This document shows positions 2,340 through 12,258 of a DNA stretch of 32,000 bases, in pieces. The translations under genes and the position numbers were made by a program. The notes under the pieces are model-generated. The model did no database searches, was not told the origin of the DNA, and saw nothing but the letters and a program-made list of their open reading frames with translations. The first letter of the stretch is position 1. Every line of letters starts with the position of its first letter. Source of the DNA: Schaalia odontolytica (GTDB lineage Bacteria; Actinomycetota; Actinomycetes; Actinomycetales; Actinomycetaceae); NCBI RefSeq assembly GCF_005696695.1, contig NZ_CP040006.1:2250001-2282000 (forward strand), in the 5' to 3' direction.

Positions 2340-2689
2340 TACTGCTCCTCCCTCATGCGCAGCAGGTCGTCCATCGTCATCGCCGGGCCGCCGTGGTCGG
2401 TGTGCTGGAAGCTCACCGCAGCTTTATTTTCGGTTGCGTTATAGGCGTTGATCGAGTCGTTCACGGACTGGGAGAAATCGTCCAGGTCACGCGTCAGTGC
2501 GATGACCGCCTCGTCGATCGTCTCGCCGGCGCCGCGTCCCTGCCCCGCGAGCGGACTCCCGCCCACTGCGGATGAAATGTAGTCGCCCGCCGTCGCGACG
2601 GTCACCGACTGCAGTCTGCTGGACAGGTCTCTCGTGCGGTCGCGCAGGGCTTCGAGGTCCCCCTCTTCGATGACAAGATCGCCGGCCAT
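2339..2689 (-). CDS. Small helix-turn-helix hairpin protein, WXG100/Esx-like, with YxxxE motif
   Basis: 116 aa. Two predicted helical segments are separated by a Gly-rich turn, GGSPLAGQGRGAG. YNATE (Y83..E87, nt 2429-2443) follows the second helix. AAGGAG SD lies 5 nt upstream of the ATG. Translationally coupled to the downstream hydrolase gene. Confidence 0.55.
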   Translation of the reverse strand: MAGDLVIEEGDLEALRDRTRDLSSRLQSVTVATAGDYISSAVGGSPLAGQGRGAGETIDEAVIALTRDLDDFSQSVNDSINAYNATENKAAVSFQHTDHGGPAMTMDDLLRMREEQ

Positions 2690-2771
2690 GATGCTCCTTC
2701 GACGTCACTTCGGTGCTGTTAAGCCAGACCCTACCAAACGGTCATAAGGCGAACAACAGCGCCCCCCAAGG

Positions 2772-2804
2772 GGCGGGACACCCCGCCTCGTCAAAGGAAC
2801 GAGG
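2772..2804 (-). terminator. Overlapping GC-rich hairpins downstream of the 213-aa gene (candidate terminator and island boundary)
   Basis: GGCGGG-acac-CCCGCC (2772-2787) and CCTCGT-caaagga-ACGAGG (2786-2804) lie just after the stop at 2823 on the minus strand. The following tract is only moderately U-rich. Confidence 0.4.
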
Positions 2805-2822
2805 CCGACTCTCGCTGGCCGG

Positions 2823-3464
2823 TCACGGCCTCCAGGCGGGGTCGCACTCGGGCGCACCGTAGCGGTCGTAAAGCTCGTCGGGGCGCGCGATCTCGTCGGC
2901 GAAGCCGAGGGCGCTCATGTCGACAACGGTGTCGGTCTGCGCGCCAGGGGCCTCGAGATCGCCAGCCTCGTCGTGGGCGACGAGGACTCGTGCGCGCACG
3001 CTGACCGGCGCCATTTCGGGATTGTTCCAGGTTGCGCGGGTGATCGCGCCGAGGGCGCGCGTGGCAGCCTCGTGCTCCGACAGTGCGTCCGAGGAGGCCA
3101 CGACCACGTCGATGGACACGAGAGAGGGACGCCCGAAGCCCTCGCCAACCTCGACGTGAACGACGCGGCGCGGCGCGCGGGACTCACCCGCACCGGCCTC
3201 GTGCGTGCGCACAGGGAAGCCGGAGTCGAGCGCCGAGGTCGCCAGGTCCACGAAACGCTGCGTGCGCCCAGTGCCCCTCGTCGAAGACAGGGCGCGCCAC
3301 GCGATGCCCGCACCCAGGGCGCCCACGCCGAGCGCGCCGATCATGAGCGGCCCGGCGATCTGCGGGAGCCGACCGCGCAGGCCCGCGGAGGCCGCCTTGT
3401 TGACGGGGGTCGAGACGCGCATCCATCGGCGCACCTCGCGCAGGGGGGCGTTGGGGTCGGTCAT
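2823..3464 (-). CDS. Single-pass membrane protein of unknown function
   Basis: 213-aa ORF with one hydrophobic helix (IAGPLMIGALGVGALGAGIAW) near the N-terminus. ATGA overlap (3461-3464) with the upstream hydrolase gene. No recognisable catalytic motif. Confidence 0.6.
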   Translation of the reverse strand: MTDPNAPLREVRRWMRVSTPVNKAASAGLRGRLPQIAGPLMIGALGVGALGAGIAWRALSSTRGTGRTQRFVDLATSALDSGFPVRTHEAGAGESRAPRRVVHVEVGEGFGRPSLVSIDVVVASSDALSEHEAATRALGAITRATWNNPEMAPVSVRARVLVAHDEAGDLEAPGAQTDTVVDMSALGFADEIARPDELYDRYGAPECDPAWRP

Positions 3465-5724: not shown

Positions 5725-8280
5725 ATGTCCACTGACTCTGTGACGACCACTCCCGCGGCCGCCCCTTCTTCCCCTGAGGCCACCCCGGCCTCGGCCCCGG
5801 CCCCCCAGGTCGGCGAGAGCACCCACGCCCACGCCGCCGACATGCTCCGACGCCTCATCGTCTCTGCGCCACTGGGCATCCTCGCGGCAATTCTGTCGAT
5901 GGTGCCCGCCTGGCAGTTCACGGGGTGGCAGTGGGTCGTCGCGGCGATCACGATCCCGGTCGTCACGTGGGGCGCGTGGCCCTTCCACCGGGCGGCCTTC
6001 TCGGCGGGTCGCCACGGGTCGACGACGATGGACACGCTGGTCTCCCTCGGCGTCATCGCCTCGACGCTGTGGAGCTGGTGGGCGCTGCTGTGGGGCGGCG
6101 CCGGGATGCTCGGCATGCGCATGCAGATGAGCCTGATCCCGCGCGCGGCGCACGCCGGCCACGCGGAGATCTACTTCGAGGTCGCGTCCACGATCGTCGT
6201 CTTCCTGCTGACGGGACGCTACCTGGAGGCGCGCGCACGCTACCGCGCGGGCGACGCGCTGCGTTCGCTGTTGAGCATGGGCGCGAAGGAGGCGACGCTC
6301 GTGAGCGTCGACCCCGCGACCGGCGAGCGCTCCGAGAGCATCGTGCCCGCCTCGTCCCTGCAGGTCGGCGACCTGTTCACGGTGCGCCCGGGCGAGAAGG
6401 TGGCAACCGACGGCGTCATCGTCGAGGGTTCCTCCGCCCTGGACACCTCGCTCCTGACGGGCGAGTCCGTGCCCGTGGACGCCGCCCCCGGCGACGCGGT
6501 GACGGGTGCGACCGTCAACACGTGGGGATCCCTGCTGGTGCGCGCCACACGCGTCGGTTCGGACACGACGCTCGCGCAGATGGGGCGCATGGTCGCCGAG
6601 GCCCAGGCCGGAAAGGCTCCCGTCCAGCGACTCGCGGACCAGATCTCCGGTGTGTTCGTGCCGATCGTCATCCTCGTTGCCCTGCTGACGCTCGGGGGCT
6701 GGCTGCTCGCCGGCGGCAGCGTGCAGGCCGCGTTCACGGCTGCCGTCGCCGTTCTAGTCGTCGCGTGCCCATGCGCGCTCGGCCTGGCCACGCCAACCGC
6801 GATCCTCGTCGGGTCGGGGCGCGCCTCGCAGCTGGGCATCCTCATCAAGAACGCAGAAATTCTCGAGCAGACGCGCTCGATCGACACGATGCTGCTGGAC
6901 AAGACGGGCACGGTCACCACGGGCGTCATGTCCCTCGAGTCGGTCGCCGTCGCGCCCGGCGCGGGCGAGGCCTCGGCCCTGTCCCTGGCTGCCTCCGTTG
7001 AGTCCCTCTCCGAGCACCCGGTCGCCCGCGCCATCACGTTGGGTGCCGCAGACCGCGGCCTGTCACTCGTCCCCGTGACGGCATTCGCGAACCAGCCCGG
7101 GCTCGGCGTCGTCGGCATCACCGCGCAGGGCGGCGTGCTGGTCGGCCGCCCGTCGTGGCTGGCTTCCCTGGGCATCGACGTGCCCTCCTCCCTCCTCGAT
7201 GCCGTGCGCGAGGCCGAGGCCTCGGGCGCCTCCGCCGTCGTCGCGGCCCTCGCGCCGCAGCTCGGCCAAGTGGCGACCACCGAGGCCGTCACCCCCGTGC
7301 CCGAGGCCCACACGCACGTTGTCCTGCCCGGCCCCGACGCCAAGCTGCCCCTCACAACCCTCACCATGAGCGTGGGCGGCATGACCTGCGCATCCTGCGT
7401 GGGCCGCGTCGAGCGCAAGCTCGGCAAGCTCGACGGCGTGAAGGCCGAGGTCAACCTCGCCACCGAGTCCGCTCGCATCACGCTCACCGTCCCTCACAGC
7501 AACGAGGAGCTTGAGGCCGCCGTCAACGCCGCCGGGTACTCCGGCACCGTCACCTCCCGTTCTGAGGCCGCGACCGCCGACGCTGCACCCGCGGCTGGCG
7601 GCAGCGCGGGTGGGGATACCGGTACCCCCACCCAGCCGGACACCACCCCGGGCGCGGGCGAGCGGGAGGGGGCCCAGGCCTCGTCCCTGGTGATCCCCGA
7701 GCGCGTCGAAGGCAGTGCGATCGCCGCGCTGATCGTGCGCGACACGGTCAAGGAGTCCTCCGCGGATGCGATCGCTCAGCTGCGCGAGCTCGGCATCGAG
7801 CCGATCCTGCTGACCGGCGACAACGAGGCGGCGGCGCGCCACGTGGCAGACCAGGTCGGGATCAAGCGCGTCATCGCGGGAGTCCTGCCCGACGGCAAGC
7901 GCAACACCGTCGCCGATCTACAGGCCGAGGGCCGCACGGTCGCGATGGTGGGCGACGGCGTGAACGACGCGGCCGCCCTGGCGCAGGCGAGCACGAAGGG
8001 CCTGGGCATCGCGATGGGCTCGGGCACAGACGTGGCGATCGAGGTCGCGGACATGACGCTCATGAACTCGTCGCTCACCTCGGCGGCGACCGCGATCCGA
8101 GTGTCGCGTCGGACGCTGCGCATCATCAAAGAGAACCTCTTCTGGGCGTTCTTCTACAACGTGCTGATGGTGCCGCTCGCGATCGCTGGGCTCCTCTCCC
8201 CCATGCTGGCCAGCGCCGCGATGGCGTGCTCATCCGTGTTCGTAGTCCTCAACTCGCTGCGCCTGCGTGCCGCGAAGTAG
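5725..8280 (+). CDS. copA: P1B-type copper-translocating ATPase with an internal rather than N-terminal HMA domain
   Basis: 851 aa with motifs in canonical order: TGES, CPC (ACPCALGLATP), DKTGT, SEHPVA, GDGVNDA, YN in TM5 and MACSS in TM6. There is no MxCxxC motif in the N-terminal 90 aa. Confidence 0.95.
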   Translation: MSTDSVTTTPAAAPSSPEATPASAPAPQVGESTHAHAADMLRRLIVSAPLGILAAILSMVPAWQFTGWQWVVAAITIPVVTWGAWPFHRAAFSAGRHGSTTMDTLVSLGVIASTLWSWWALLWGGAGMLGMRMQMSLIPRAAHAGHAEIYFEVASTIVVFLLTGRYLEARARYRAGDALRSLLSMGAKEATLVSVDPATGERSESIVPASSLQVGDLFTVRPGEKVATDGVIVEGSSALDTSLLTGESVPVDAAPGDAVTGATVNTWGSLLVRATRVGSDTTLAQMGRMVAEAQAGKAPVQRLADQISGVFVPIVILVALLTLGGWLLAGGSVQAAFTAAVAVLVVACPCALGLATPTAILVGSGRASQLGILIKNAEILEQTRSIDTMLLDKTGTVTTGVMSLESVAVAPGAGEASALSLAASVESLSEHPVARAITLGAADRGLSLVPVTAFANQPGLGVVGITAQGGVLVGRPSWLASLGIDVPSSLLDAVREAEASGASAVVAALAPQLGQVATTEAVTPVPEAHTHVVLPGPDAKLPLTTLTMSVGGMTCASCVGRVERKLGKLDGVKAEVNLATESARITLTVPHSNEELEAAVNAAGYSGTVTSRSEAATADAAPAAGGSAGGDTGTPTQPDTTPGAGEREGAQASSLVIPERVEGSAIAALIVRDTVKESSADAIAQLRELGIEPILLTGDNEAAARHVADQVGIKRVIAGVLPDGKRNTVADLQAEGRTVAMVGDGVNDAAALAQASTKGLGIAMGSGTDVAIEVADMTLMNSSLTSAATAIRVSRRTLRIIKENLFWAFFYNVLMVPLAIAGLLSPMLASAAMACSSVFVVLNSLRLRAAK
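7351..7557 (+). other. HMA metal-binding domain embedded in the copA cytoplasmic ATP-binding region
   Basis: LTTLTMSVGGMTCASCVGRVERKLGKLDGVKAEVNLATESARITLTV...AAGYSGTV is encoded in frame between DKTGT and GDGVNDA, followed by a Pro/Ala/Gly/Thr-rich linker. Confidence 0.85.
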
Positions 8281-8296
8281 CCGCACAAACGGCACG

Positions 8297-8353
8297 AGTG
8301 CCGCGTGGCCGGACATCCGGCTGCGCGGCACTTGTCGCATTACGAGGTGCGTC
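8297..8353 (+). repeat. 57-nt hairpin-containing repeat, copy 1
   Basis: agtgccgcgtggccggacatccggctgcgcggcacttgtcgcattacgaggtgcgtc matches 10713-10769 at 50 of 57 positions in the same orientation. It contains a 16-bp stem (AGTGCCGCGTGGCCGG / CCGGCTGCGCGGCACT, two G-U-type pairs). Confidence 0.8.
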
Positions 8354-8364
8354 AAGCGATACGC

Positions 8365-8398
8365 CCCGTTCTCTCCTCACGGGGAAGGGAGAACGGGA
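8365..8398. terminator. Hairpin between convergent copA and the S8 protease gene (candidate bidirectional terminator)
   Basis: CCCGTTCTC (8365-8373) pairs with GAGAACGGG (8390-8398). It sits between the stops at 8280 (+) and 8434 (-). Confidence 0.45.
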
Positions 8399-8433
8399 CG
8401 CAGGCTGCGCGCTCGATCGCGCGGGTGTCATGG

Positions 8434-9672
8434 TCACTTCCGGTGGTAGCGCGGGCTAGTTCCCAGGTGGACGGTGATTGTCTTGTTGTCATTCAAGACG
8501 ACCCCTTCGTCCGTTCCACGATAGACGTAGGACGACGGGAATGAGTCCGTCAGTGTGTCCCCTGCGATCCCATCCATGTAGTCCTGCATCTCCTGGACAC
8601 TGGGGGAAGAGCCATTGGGCTTTGGAATAATGGGGTTCTCATCCGGGTACTGCGACGGATCCGTGTTAACCAAAGACCCCAGAGCCGCCGCACCATAGCC
8701 GGTGTACTTATCCCAGTTATGAGTGGGGTTCAGGCCCGTGCGAACCAGGAGCTGGAGGATCTGGTTGGTAGTGGCCTCGGGCCACCGCTGGCGCGCTAAA
8801 GCCAGCATGCCTGCCACAAGCGGCGCAGACACAGATGTCCCATTGACCGTTTGCGGTTGGTTTGTCGCAGGGTCGAAAGTGTTGAAGGGTCCGCCAAAAG
8901 CAGCTGTGACTACGCCGTCGCCCCAGGACGAGTAGGACGCGAACGTACCGTCGGCGTTAATCGCGGACACACCAACGACGCCAGAGAACCTGCTCAGGTG
9001 CGTCACATTGTCGTCACTGGCGCCATTTCCGGCGGAGGCGACGATGATGACGCCCTTGCTGATCGCGTTGGCGATCGCCCACTTCAGCTCAGGACTCTCC
9101 TCCGAGACACTTTGCGAGACGGAAATGATCTGAGCACCGTCCTCAACGGCCTGGTTGATGAGGCTGGCGAAAGTGTTGAGCCGACCGCCATCGGAGCTGC
9201 AGGTTCCATTCGACGTTGTCGATGCCGTCGACGACTGGTAGGTGTATAGAGTCGCATCGGGTGCCACGCCGGTCTTGGGGGAAACCAAGATGATCGCCAT
9301 ATCGGTGCCATGACGCTTCCCCTCGGGGGTCGCCTCCACCGTACAGCGGCTCTTGTCGGTGACCTTAGCCCCCTTGAGCGCAGGGTCACTCGTATCAACC
9401 GGACCGCCAATGGCAGCGATCGTGACGCCCTTACCGGTGTATCCCTTGGCGCGTACGGTATCGAGAGGATAGTAGGAGAAATAATCCTGTGAAGGCACCG
9501 CGTCGTCCGCTTGCGTGGGGGCAGGGGCCACTGTTAGGACCCCGACGGCAAGCGCAAGGGCCGAGACGGCGGTGGTCAGGGCGCGCGCGGCGCGCCCCGC
9601 CCTCCCCGCGAAAGCGAAGGGAGAACGAGGCGCAACGTGAGAAGAAATGCTCACCACTGGCGGGGGTCCCAT
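8434..9672 (-). CDS. Secreted subtilisin-like (S8) serine protease, mycosin-like core, with a degenerate Asp box
   Basis: His box KRHGTDMA, oxyanion ASAGNG and Ser box NGTSVSAPLVAGMLAL are present. Signal-peptide-like ALTTAVSALALAVGVLTVAPAPTQA. There is no C-terminal TM helix. An alternative start, GTG 9652-9654, forms a GTGA overlap with the upstream small ORF. Confidence 0.8.
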   Translation of the reverse strand: MGPPPVVSISSHVAPRSPFAFAGRAGRAARALTTAVSALALAVGVLTVAPAPTQADDAVPSQDYFSYYPLDTVRAKGYTGKGVTIAAIGGPVDTSDPALKGAKVTDKSRCTVEATPEGKRHGTDMAIILVSPKTGVAPDATLYTYQSSTASTTSNGTCSSDGGRLNTFASLINQAVEDGAQIISVSQSVSEESPELKWAIANAISKGVIIVASAGNGASDDNVTHLSRFSGVVGVSAINADGTFASYSSWGDGVVTAAFGGPFNTFDPATNQPQTVNGTSVSAPLVAGMLALARQRWPEATTNQILQLLVRTGLNPTHNWDKYTGYGAAALGSLVNTDPSQYPDENPIIPKPNGSSPSVQEMQDYMDGIAGDTLTDSFPSSYVYRGTDEGVVLNDNKTITVHLGTSPRYHRK

Positions 9673-9977
9673 CCGTCGTCCGTACGCCTGGCCGGCGCGA
9701 TGTCCTTGTCTGTGCCGTAAGTCTGGGACATGGGATTCACGTAGCCCGCGGGCAGCTCGTCCTCGTCATCCTCAAACTTGAAGGCCATGTACTGGCGCCT
9801 GCGGCCCTTCTTGTCTTCTTTGCCCGCTCCAGCGCCAGCGCCGGCTCCGGCCCCCATGAAGCCGCCGGAGCCCTCGTGGGCCGCGCCGCGCACGCCGGCT
9901 CGGCCCACGACACTTGCGCCACAGGGCGCTGCTGTCTGCCGGTAGTTGCCATACCAGGCGTCGGGTTCTCCAGCCAT
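9651..9977 (-). CDS. Small acidic, Gly/Ala-rich protein of unknown function
   Basis: The start is taken at ATG 9975-9977 (MAGEPDAWYGNYRQ...) because GAGGAG lies 6 nt upstream. It contains a GAGAGAGAGAG run, a KKGRRR patch and FEDDEDE. The stop overlaps the candidate GTG start of the protease. No recognisable family. Confidence 0.5.
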   Translation of the reverse strand: MAGEPDAWYGNYRQTAAPCGASVVGRAGVRGAAHEGSGGFMGAGAGAGAGAGKEDKKGRRRQYMAFKFEDDEDELPAGYVNPMSQTYGTDKDIAPARRTDDGWDPRQW

Positions 9978-10033
9978 TGCGGGCTCCTCAAGTGTCAATG
10001 AAAGAAGATGAGTGCGCCGATGCGCCCGGTTGC

Positions 10034-10576
10034 TTACTTGGCGACCTTGAAGCGGCGGACCAGCGGCTTATCAGGCTGGTCAGAACCCTCAATCTTCAGG
10101 GTCCACACGTAGGTCAGGTCAGAGCCGGAGCCCTCCACGTCCACGGTCCAGGACGAGTAGTACTCGCAGTTCTGCTCCACGCACAGGTCGTAGGTGTCAT
10201 TGCCCAGCCGCCAGAAATCAGTCGCCGACATCATCTGGTAGATCGTCTCATTCTTATTGACGACCGTCTGGCCCTTGGGATCAAGCTTGAAGGTCTGCTG
10301 GGCGATCGTCACGGGGGCCTCGGCCACCAGCTGCGCGCCAACCATATTGTTCAAGGCGACGGCCTTCGCAGCGATCTGCTTCTTCTGATCGCCCGACGCG
10401 GACTGCATCTGCTGCACCAGCTGCTGCTTCTGCCCCTGAGGAATATTGGGCAGCTTGCTGATATCGGTGGCCTTAGAGCCACCCCCACCGAAGAGGGAGC
10501 AACCCGACAGTGCGACGGCAGCGAGCAACACGGAAGCGGTCGCCGCACCGGCGCGACGAGATACGAGAGAGAACAT
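10034..10576 (-). CDS. Lipoprotein of unknown function
   Basis: The start is set at ATG 10574-10576 (MFSLVSRRAGAATASVLLAAVALSGC) with an AGGAG SD 6 nt upstream. Lipobox LSGC. The mature part is Gln/Lys-rich, followed by a region that looks beta-strand-rich. Confidence 0.7.
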   Translation of the reverse strand: MFSLVSRRAGAATASVLLAAVALSGCSLFGGGGSKATDISKLPNIPQGQKQQLVQQMQSASGDQKKQIAAKAVALNNMVGAQLVAEAPVTIAQQTFKLDPKGQTVVNKNETIYQMMSATDFWRLGNDTYDLCVEQNCEYYSSWTVDVEGSGSDLTYVWTLKIEGSDQPDKPLVRRFKVAK

Positions 10577-10712
10577 ATTTTCTCCTACCTTCAGACGAAG
10601 CAATCATATGCGAGAAAGAGGACGCCGTGGCGCTATGCACACTCGATACTCACTCAGCGCAATAAAGCTGTTATTCGTCTTATGAAGCCAGCCGCATTGC
10701 ACGAACGTCGTC

Positions 10713-10769
10713 AGTGCCGCGCGGCCGGGTGTCCGGCTGCGCGGCACTCGTCGTTTTACGAGGTGCGTC
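10713..10769 (+). repeat. 57-nt hairpin-containing repeat, copy 2 (overlaps the last codons and stop of the DUF2079 gene)
   Basis: agtgccgcgcggccgggtgtccggctgcgcggcactcgtcgttttacgaggtgcgtc matches 8297-8353 at 50 of 57 positions in direct orientation. Confidence 0.8.
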
Positions 10770-12258
10770 GCGCGACGCGGAAGCCCTGCTTGGCGTAGAC
10801 GGTCTCGTAGGAGTGTCCCGGGTGGGCAGCGCTCCCCCACGACTCGGCATCGACCTCCTGGCCGCCCCACGCGTAGGATCGCGCGTCGATGACGACATAC
10901 TCCGGCGGGGTATCCATCTTCCCCGTCGTGCCTACCCAGTAGACCTCGCGACCGGGCACGAGGCGCGCAAGCAGCGTCGTGTCGGTTTCGACGCTCACCC
11001 CTTCGGGCACCGCGTCGAGCGCGCCGAGGGCGGCGGCCATGCGCGGATCCTCCTTGAGGTCGGACAGGTGCCACAGCGGAAGGGACGAGGCCGTGAGAGC
11101 CAGGGACACAGCGGGCACGCACGCGGCCGCCCAGGCCGCGACGCGCCAGCCCAGGTTCGACGAGGCCAGGGCCTCGTCCTCAGCGTCCGCGTCGGTCCCG
11201 AGGCCGGCGCGCTCGGGCGCGAGCCACTGGTCGATGACATCGAGCAGCGAGCACGCCGCAATAGGAACGAGCACGGCGTTGTAGTGCCACGAGTCCCAGC
11301 CGTAGTAGGCCTCGACGGAGCCCGCGAAGCGCCACGCGAGCGTCGGGGCCACCAGCGCGAACCACGGGGAGGCCGTGCCCACAAAACCGGCCCCGGCGGC
11401 CAGGACGATGAGGGTCACGAGCTTGACAGAAGGGGTCGTCAGGATGTCCCACAGGGAGGGGATTGCGCGCGCGGCGGTGGTTCCACCGGTCGGCGTGCCC
11501 GCCCCTGTCGCGGCCCCGTCAAGCGAGTATGCCCATGTGCCCGCCGGGTTCATCGCCGGGAGCAGCACCTTCACCGTCAACACAAACGCGACGATGCCGA
11601 ACAGCGCGTACGCTATCGACCGCAGGACAGCAGACCGCCCTTCACCTCGGCGACGCCATGCGAGAGCCAGGCCGGCGACGAAGACCGTCAGGCCCAGATC
11701 CTCCTTGACAAAGACGAGGGGCACCAGCCACGCCATGCACGCACCCCAGCGCCGCTCAACGAAGGCGACGCCTCCGAAAGCCAGCAGCGGGACGGCCACG
11801 CAGACCTCGTGAAACTGGGCGCCAACCGCACCCTGCAGCCCCCACCCCAGGCCGTAGGCAAGACCGACGAGGAGCGCGCCGCCTCGACCGAGGAGACGCT
11901 GCGCGAGGCGCGCGATCGGCGCCGCCGACGCCGCGATCAGCACGTCTTGGACGACGAGAAGGGTCAGCGCGGAGGGGAAGAGACGAAAGATCGGACCGAG
12001 CAGCGCCAGGATCGGGTGGAAGTGATCACCCAGCAGGTTGTAGCCGGGCCCCTTGATGGGGACGATGGGCGCCTCGAAGCGCGAGTAGGCCTGGACGGCC
12101 TCGGCGAAGATGCCCAGGTCCCAGGAGGGGGCGACAAGTGCGCGCCACTGCGCCACCGAGTAGCAGACGTAGAGCGCGCCGACTGCGCAGGCGATGAGGG
12201 TGGGCAGCCACCAGGTCGCCACCAGGCGAGCGACGGCTAATCGATCCGGGCCCTTCAC
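10756..12258 (-). CDS. DUF2079-family polytopic membrane protein (GT-C-like; envelope glycan assembly suspected)
   Basis: 500 aa, multi-TM. The N-terminal string SWDLGIFAEAVQ...LLGDHFHPILALLGPIFRLFPSALTLLVVQ matches my recollection of the DUF2079 signature. GTG start with a GTGA overlap onto the upstream GT2 gene. Confidence 0.7.
   Translation of the reverse strand: MKGPDRLAVARLVATWWLPTLIACAVGALYVCYSVAQWRALVAPSWDLGIFAEAVQAYSRFEAPIVPIKGPGYNLLGDHFHPILALLGPIFRLFPSALTLLVVQDVLIAASAAPIARLAQRLLGRGGALLVGLAYGLGWGLQGAVGAQFHEVCVAVPLLAFGGVAFVERRWGACMAWLVPLVFVKEDLGLTVFVAGLALAWRRRGEGRSAVLRSIAYALFGIVAFVLTVKVLLPAMNPAGTWAYSLDGAATGAGTPTGGTTAARAIPSLWDILTTPSVKLVTLIVLAAGAGFVGTASPWFALVAPTLAWRFAGSVEAYYGWDSWHYNAVLVPIAACSLLDVIDQWLAPERAGLGTDADAEDEALASSNLGWRVAAWAAACVPAVSLALTASSLPLWHLSDLKEDPRMAAALGALDAVPEGVSVETDTTLLARLVPGREVYWVGTTGKMDTPPEYVVIDARSYAWGGQEVDAESWGSAAHPGHSYETVYAKQGFRVARRTS

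Follow-up and report, generated by a model that had tools for sequence, protein, structure and literature searches.

The minimal mobile elements (MMEs) of Neisseria are described as alternative gene cassettes found at one syntenic site between conserved genes (PMC1797815, citing Saunders and Snyder 2002; PMC3787668). By analogy, MMEs would be the nearest described concept for the locus considered here as a whole. This is the site between copA and a gene encoding a DUF2079 membrane protein in Schaalia odontolytica, located in a stretch of 32,000 nt (NCBI RefSeq assembly GCF_005696695.1, contig NZ_CP040006.1, positions 2,250,001 to 2,282,000 of the forward strand; hereafter the window, to which coordinates refer unless stated otherwise). 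In the window, the site is occupied by a cassette of type VII secretion system (T7SS) accessory genes, which is bracketed by two 77-nt direct repeats. We favour, with moderate confidence, the interpretation that these repeats represent a target duplication resulting from one old, non-site-specific insertion of a T7SS accessory fragment. As with MMEs, the conserved copA and DUF2079 flanks hold at least four alternative contents (nothing, the T7SS cassette, a major facilitator superfamily (MFS) transporter gene or a 0.4–1.2-kb element), the inserts are devoid of mobility genes, and the different states are interspersed on the species tree with mosaic flanks. A duplicated target is not among the defining features of MMEs, whereas the insert at this site is bounded by a duplication of 77 nt. 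We know of no natural transformation in Schaalia.

Integrase-borne islands and their integrase-less derivatives, such as the cis-mobilisable elements (CIMEs) of streptococci, are bounded by direct repeats of tens of nucleotides that take in a gene 3′ end, and their empty sites carry one copy of the repeat. The direct repeats of the copA/DUF2079 site similarly bracket the insert and include a gene 3′ end, and empty sites with one copy are found. In contrast to CIMEs, no recombinase was identified at any allele of this site, one end of the insert is variable and cuts a gene, no attP-bearing element was found, and no sign of ongoing excision was seen. The locus mainly provides a worked example of a long repeat that includes a gene 3′ end and that, together with empty sites, resembles attL/attR, yet may have been left behind when one illegitimate insertion entered a recombination hotspot. 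It also documents the multiplication and decay of type VII secretion accessory modules in oral Schaalia. No long-standing question is opened by the result.

The cassette and its immediate flanks are composed of the following features:

5725–8280, plus strand: copA-type P1B ATPase (Pfam E1-E2_ATPase, HMA and Hydrolase), the left flank, which is conserved in all relatives
8283–8359, plus strand: repeat copy 1 (spacer, hairpin at 8297–8332, 7 nt and pseudo-tail), identified by repeat search and alignment; the same left copy is present in all T7SS-occupied relatives
8361–8431, minus strand: first ~24 codons (MTPARSSAQPASRSPFPVRRE...) of a further, truncated S8 paralogue, identified by alignment to S8′ of G013; contains a second hairpin at 8362–8400
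8434–9672, minus strand: mycosin-like S8 subtilase homologue without the catalytic Asp (Pfam PF00082, 1e-26; TIGR03921, 147 bits)
9651–9998, minus strand: remnant open reading frame (ORF) with the C-terminal ~94 residues of a 547–565-aa Gly/Ala-rich putative T7SS substrate and unrelated N-terminal codons, identified by tblastn
9873–9968, no strand: scar of a 1.8–2.0-kb internal deletion, with breakpoints mapped against five relatives
10034–10576, minus strand: lipoprotein of 180 aa with the lipobox LSGC, a paralogue of the EccC-adjacent lipoprotein
10577–10698, minus strand: region upstream of the lipoprotein gene (promoter region), of which 10630–10698 is found in this cassette alone
10699–10775, plus strand: repeat copy 2 (spacer, hairpin at 10713–10748, and the DUF2079 stop and last codons at 10756–10775), identified by repeat search, alignment and fold
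10756–12258, minus strand: DUF2079 membrane protein (Pfam PF09852, 4e-51), the right flank

A repeat search of the window returned one direct-repeat family of 77 nt, at 8283–8359 and 10699–10775, whose two copies are 82% identical. These contain the two same-orientation 57-nt copies that had been described in the first-pass annotation of this DNA and that we confirmed by blastn-short (8297–8353 and 10713–10769; 50/57 positions, 87.7% identity). Gapped local alignment of the two copies gave a score of 84, against a maximum of 28 among 500 shuffles. In each copy, 14 nt of spacer are followed by a hairpin of 36 nt (16-bp stem and 4-nt loop; 8297–8332 in copy 1 and 10713–10748 in copy 2), 7 nt and a 20-nt end segment (TTACGAGGTGCGTC..GCGA) corresponding to the DUF2079 tail. 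In copy 2 this segment (10756–10775) represents the end of the DUF2079 gene on the minus strand, with its final 17 coding nt and stop codon; the corresponding segment of copy 1 (8340–8359, TTACGAGGTGCGTCAAGCGA) is an orphan pseudo-tail with no gene attached. The earlier description of one copy joining the DUF2079 end to a 16-bp hairpin, and of another standing without a gene, is therefore borne out. The plus-strand RNA fold of the hairpins is approximately −48 kcal/mol (−48.6 kcal/mol for copy 1), and copy 1 is probably the terminator of copA.

Because it is a G+C-rich hairpin at gene ends, the repeat could also belong to a genome-wide repetitive extragenic palindromic (REP)-like or generic terminator family, two copies of which would stand here by coincidence; this alternative had been offered alongside the first description. 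However, genome-wide blastn-short identified only two copies in 2.36 Mb, with the remaining matches being 12–18-nt chance matches, and the similarity between copies reaches beyond the palindrome into the non-palindromic flanks and the DUF2079 coding tail. In addition, no Rfam family was matched by the repeat. A family of this kind was ruled out by the low copy number, and we consider its probability negligible. The repeat search found no other inverted repeats between the cassette ends, which share only the hairpins of the duplicated target. The cassette does not, in this respect, resemble a transposon or insertion sequence with a target-site duplication, for which terminal inverted repeats and a transposase gene are expected. 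As a separate observation, the loop of the left hairpin is polymorphic within the species, reading GTGT or ACAT in conspecific contigs (L158 vs L160) with identical stems. The two loop sequences are near reverse complements of one another, which suggests loop inversion through template switching. The right hairpin copy shows no variation within the species.

A query restricted to the flanks was used to search the genomes of 75 species of the genus, and the junctions were dissected (species genomes are labelled G, with G000 containing the window, and individual loci or contigs are labelled L). The contents of the copA/DUF2079 site in these genomes were:

Empty site (G004, G071, G073, G046, G056, G061, G084): 59–66 nt from the copA stop to the DUF2079 stop, with one spacer-hairpin-tail unit
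T7SS-type cassette (G000, G059, G058, G083, G081, G055, G019, G013, G086, G014, G053): 1.5–6.7 kb, with one to three S8 genes
MFS transporter gene (G041, G050, G024, G008, G042): 396 aa, PF07690; the rpoB outgroups are among these genomes
Unrelated 0.4–1.2-kb “type-2” element (G016, G017, G045, G051, G069): a piece is also present in G086 beside the cassette
Spacer of 240 nt (G015)

The empty site with one repeat copy, which had been anticipated among relatives, was present in seven species. This supports the earlier view that the insertion target, comprising the terminator hairpin and the DUF2079 3′ end, has been duplicated in the window. Since a complete empty-type spacer is found in both repeat copies, the insertion entered an empty-type allele. 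Within the crown group of an rpoB tree, whose members have at least 97.5% rpoB identity, genomes with an empty site are intermingled with cassette carriers. Comparison of the 10-kb flanks with 12 relatives showed that they are mosaic, with the nearest relative shifting from one segment to the next; a breakpoint analysis covering these 10 kb on either side in the same 12 relatives gave no decisive signal of recombination. The site is best described as a multi-allelic hotspot.

With respect to its other contents, the loci bearing the MFS gene (L034 in G041, L041, L024, L028 and L044) lack the hairpin, and the MFS transporter is probably the older state of the site. The type-2 element (L006 in G017, 2534–3170; also L040, L039, L008, L042 and L048) features iteron-like repeats (GCGCTACACCCGAT...) and an inverted repeat, and encodes an ORF of 87–89 aa (MSDSLPTKGDQELAVRDWLNRASEEQD...).

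The cargo in the window is best interpreted as a satellite copy of a T7SS accessory module comprising a lipoprotein, two putative substrates and mycosin-like S8 proteins. The main T7SS locus of the genome, at 386–409 kb, contains genes for EccC (TIGR03924, 807 bits; TIGR03925, 764 bits), an EccB-like protein (148 bits, cut-off 154), a lipoprotein, proteins of 199 and 565 aa, and S8 proteins. The lipoprotein gene of this locus is directly 3′ of EccC (392184–392723 on G000:C1) and shares 89% amino acid and 88% nucleotide identity with the lipoprotein gene in the window; upstream of the latter, homology to the main locus stops at 10629. The S8 protein in the window shows 66% identity to an S8 paralogue of the main locus, the gene for which (388,626–389,864) is localised beside EccC and EccB, whereas the S8 gene in the window is localised between copA and DUF2079. 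Finally, the ORF at 9651–9998 matches residues 472–565 only of the 565-aa paralogue, with 73% identity (tblastn). The cargo is comparable with the ESX or type VII loci with mycosin (MycP), and the duplicated ESX modules, of Actinobacteria, in that its genes are paralogous to those adjacent to EccC and EccB and the best match of its S8 protein is TIGR03921.

In the 565-aa protein, the N-terminal part is helical, a long middle region is rich in Gly, Ala and Ser, and the C-terminal tail is conserved; no membrane segment is predicted, and the protein is a probable T7SS substrate. The lipoprotein has no Pfam or NCBIfam match. Its AlphaFold2 model (pLDDT 77) features two helices followed by a beta-barrel-like sheet, for which a fold search of the PDB returned nothing significant (the top match was the protease inhibitor 6iy4, E 0.14). 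A sequence search of the PDB with the 565-aa protein and the lipoprotein also gave no match.

The left junction shows where the insert was cut. Directly after the stop codon of the S8 gene, an ATG and approximately 24 codons on the minus strand (8361–8431) align to the 5′ end of an intact gene, S8′ of G013 (score 78; shuffled sequences reached 27 at most), which places the left end of the insert within a gene. This junction varies by species, with an S8 remnant of 6–24 codons and a pseudo-tail of 7–20 nt, a pattern resembling subsequent erosion of a junction formed illegitimately. The repeats had been described as enclosing exactly a three-gene cluster and its promoter. The genes and upstream region are indeed bracketed, but the 24-codon S8 remnant lies inside the repeats as well. 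We also observed that the hairpin at 8362–8400, downstream of the S8 gene, is formed by the coding 5′ end of the S8 remnant and an inverted copy thereof, and that its right arm resembles 9616–9634 within the S8 gene.

The first-pass annotation had proposed a site-specific, attL/attR-like origin for the repeats. In this scenario, a circular element would have carried an attP matching the terminator and the DUF2079 3′ end, the repeats would correspond to attL and attR, and later loss of the recombinase would have left a cis-mobilisable remnant of an integrase-borne islet. The 77-nt direct repeats that take in a gene's 3′ end, the empty sites with exactly one copy, the interspersion of occupied and empty states in close relatives, and the different element that abuts the same hairpin arm in G017 and G086 are all consistent with such an islet. 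However, a discrete element is expected to have fixed ends, whereas this insert terminates on the left in a truncated gene, at a variable junction. No recombinase was found in the 11 occupied species genomes, with loci of up to 6.7 kb, or in ~30 metagenome contigs, including conspecific ones (more than 40 occupied loci in all); these loci contain only S8, 547-aa, 176-aa and lipoprotein genes. For the cassette in the window, the earlier statement that no integrase is present holds: none of the ORFs encodes a recombinase, and Pfam and NCBIfam searches identified no transposase domain. The cargo copies a chromosomal T7SS module, and phage, plasmid and viral-contig collections yielded no attP-like copy, apart from one chance 43-nt partial match in Streptomyces. 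Moreover, none of 21 conspecific contigs has an empty site, and a search around the remaining S8 satellite loci, at about 100 kb, 446 kb and 2.22 Mb in the genome, revealed no repeats flanking them. Given the lack of a recombinase at occupied loci and of an attP-like copy, the truncated and variable left end, and the occupation of all 21 conspecific contigs, we find the site-specific origin unsupported and regard a decayed islet as unlikely.

The lower G+C content that had been reported for the cassette genes was reproduced (0.61 for the cassette, compared with 0.70–0.72 for the flanks and 0.659 for the genome). This value is, however, normal for the S8/lipoprotein family, which ranges from 0.57 to 0.66 across the same genome, and therefore it provides no sign of foreign origin; that interpretation of the low G+C content was rejected. 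The right flank also contains a gene for a GT2 glycosyltransferase.

At the right junction, the full hairpin is restricted, among cassette carriers, to the species of the window. A short form of this junction without the hairpin core is found in five species and 21 metagenome contigs, and all 21 matches in a metagenome scan for the long right junction corresponded to this short form. G081 and G013 have other degenerate forms, with G081 retaining a longer piece of the right arm. The simplest source of these three distinct degenerate right copies is one that was once complete, and an ancestral duplication of the full unit is therefore favoured. The 89-nt piece at the right end of the cassette occurs only at the copA/DUF2079 site, in 8 of the 75 genus genomes. 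At about 7640–7690 of locus L032 (G053), we observed a tandem duplication of the DUF2079 tail at the right junction (CATCACGAGGTGYGCCG, two copies).

Several observations weigh against a single non-site-specific insertion with full target duplication. A target duplication of 77 nt is unusually long for break repair and lies within the range of the att repeats of integrase-borne islands. No donor locus for the 89 nt at the right end was found in the 75 genus genomes. The rpoB tree is based on a single gene and has poor resolution within the crown group. Repeat copy 2 is 95–98% identical to the single copy of the empty-site genomes G046 and G073, and may have been refreshed or created by recombination with an empty-site allele. 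In G017, the type-2 element is flanked by a 12–14-nt duplication of the right hairpin arm, and an insert of this type in the same hairpin hints at a specific mechanism that attracts insertions to it.

The similarity of copy 2 to empty-site alleles raises a different history for the right-hand hairpin. The ancestral duplication would have covered only ~25–40 nt, comprising the right arm and the tail, and the full right copy would have been gained later from an empty-site allele via DUF2079 homology and microhomology near AGCCGCA. Such a history agrees with the match between the left copy and the left copies of other occupied genomes, with the hairpin-less short right junction common to the five species and 21 metagenome contigs, and with a marginal similarity (p about 0.05) between the copA stop region and the right end of the cassette. 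On the other hand, the longer arm in G081 and the distinct form in G013 argue for independent erosion of a complete copy, and G000 and G081 have GCATTGCACG in common at the cassette end. A complete right copy is also present in at least 10 conspecific contigs with the full-length cassette, and the flanks show no clear recombination breakpoint. We consider this secondary origin of the second hairpin quite unlikely.

Based on the long duplication in the window, the 12–14-nt duplication in G017, and the right-hand junction of the type-2 element in G086, which is the same as in G017, a trans-acting system could also be envisaged. The hairpin and gene tail would then serve as the attachment site of an unrecognised recombination system that loads cassettes (T7SS modules and the type-2 element) into terminator hairpins, in a manner similar to integrons but without a linked integrase. 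We regard this possibility as very improbable.

We return to one old illegitimate insertion as the favoured explanation. Its age can be approximated from the S8 orthologues of eight species, which share 90–98% DNA identity (dS 0.25–0.39, dN/dS about 0.1), and from the divergence of 12–18% between the two repeat copies; based on these values, the event is approximately as old as the species complex and took place before these species separated. The insertion is old and appears to be immobile now, and we interpret the locus as ordinary evolution at a variable hotspot and not as a recent or active island. The target would have been an empty copA/DUF2079 spacer of ~60 nt with one strong terminator hairpin between the converging genes. 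The inserted fragment would have been cut or copied from type VII secretion accessory genes arranged in tandem. It would have begun with the initial codons of an S8 gene, continued through one or two S8 genes and two putative substrates, and ended with the lipoprotein and its upstream region. Joining may have occurred by illegitimate recombination, whether through template switching at the hairpin, break repair, or duplication followed by deletion, and would have copied the whole spacer and 20 nt of the DUF2079 tail onto both sides. Vertical inheritance would have followed, along with exchange within the Schaalia odontolytica complex via homologous recombination in the flanks. Lineage-specific erosion would then have removed the right-hand hairpin in most species, with its retention here, and ~1.9 kb from inside the cassette of this strain. 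Today the repeats probably function only as terminators, copy 1 for copA and copy 2 for DUF2079; copy 2 would also shield the lipoprotein-S8 operon from read-through.

The internal deletion was mapped against G013, G081, G059, G058 and G083. Relatives and conspecific strains have a full 547–565-aa gene and a 176–199-aa gene at the corresponding position, which indicates that the window has lost 1.8–2.0 kb, including most of the 547-aa gene and nearly all of the 176–199-aa gene. Accordingly, the “small acidic protein” that had been annotated as a gene of its own is a deletion remnant of the 547–565-aa gene. Similarly, the three genes, whose joint occurrence in other taxa had been suggested as a check, derive by deletion from a five-gene module, which copies part of the T7SS locus of the genome. 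The full 5.4-kb form was identified in contigs from at least 10 metagenome samples, with the order copA, copy 1, Asp-less S8, second S8, 547-aa gene, 176-aa gene, lipoprotein, complete copy 2 and DUF2079. At least 10 full-form contigs are 100% identical to the window in the lipoprotein gene, its upstream region, copy 2 and DUF2079. The deleted 2.4-kb form, as in the window, was found in GCA_001462375.1 only. In all 21 contigs encoding the identical DUF2079 protein, the lipoprotein gene is located 179 nt beyond the stop of DUF2079, and no empty site was seen among these 21 conspecific contigs; the insertion appears fixed in the species.

The S8 protein in the window has TIGR03921 (mycosin) as its best NCBIfam match, with 147.4 bits, under the cut-off of 278.75. 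Its Asp box (9406–9408) reads IAAIGGP compared with IALIDGP, such that the catalytic Asp is replaced by Gly, while the His (HGT) and Ser (GTS) boxes are retained. This replacement was found in 8/8 orthologues examined and in 0/11 paralogues (Asp-box loci L002, L023, L029–L033, L046 and L048). No hydrophobic C-terminal anchor was identified in the sequence of this protein. The cargo differs in these features from ESX loci with MycP, as it does in the number and dispersal of its paralogues, with at least 12 mycosin-like S8 paralogues across six loci of the genome (including 99,722–102,313, 386,066–408,879, 445,636–448,319 and 2,218,669–2,223,212 on G000:C1). The dN/dS values are low for both the S8 gene (0.08–0.18) and the lipoprotein gene (0.11–0.24), and both genes are therefore maintained by selection. 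Given this purifying selection, the Asp-less S8 protein of the copA/DUF2079 site can be described as a conserved pseudo-protease.

We also observed that S8 paralogues often directly follow a 500–565-aa Gly/Ala-rich protein with the conserved tail ...DELPAGYVNP...DDGWDPRQW; these pairs could represent type VII modules composed of a substrate and a protease. Another short remnant of this C-terminal tail is localised at G000:C1:102,116–102,313, adjoining two S8 genes. Deletions would thus tend to spare the 3′ end of the substrate gene, perhaps because the S8 start overlaps with it.

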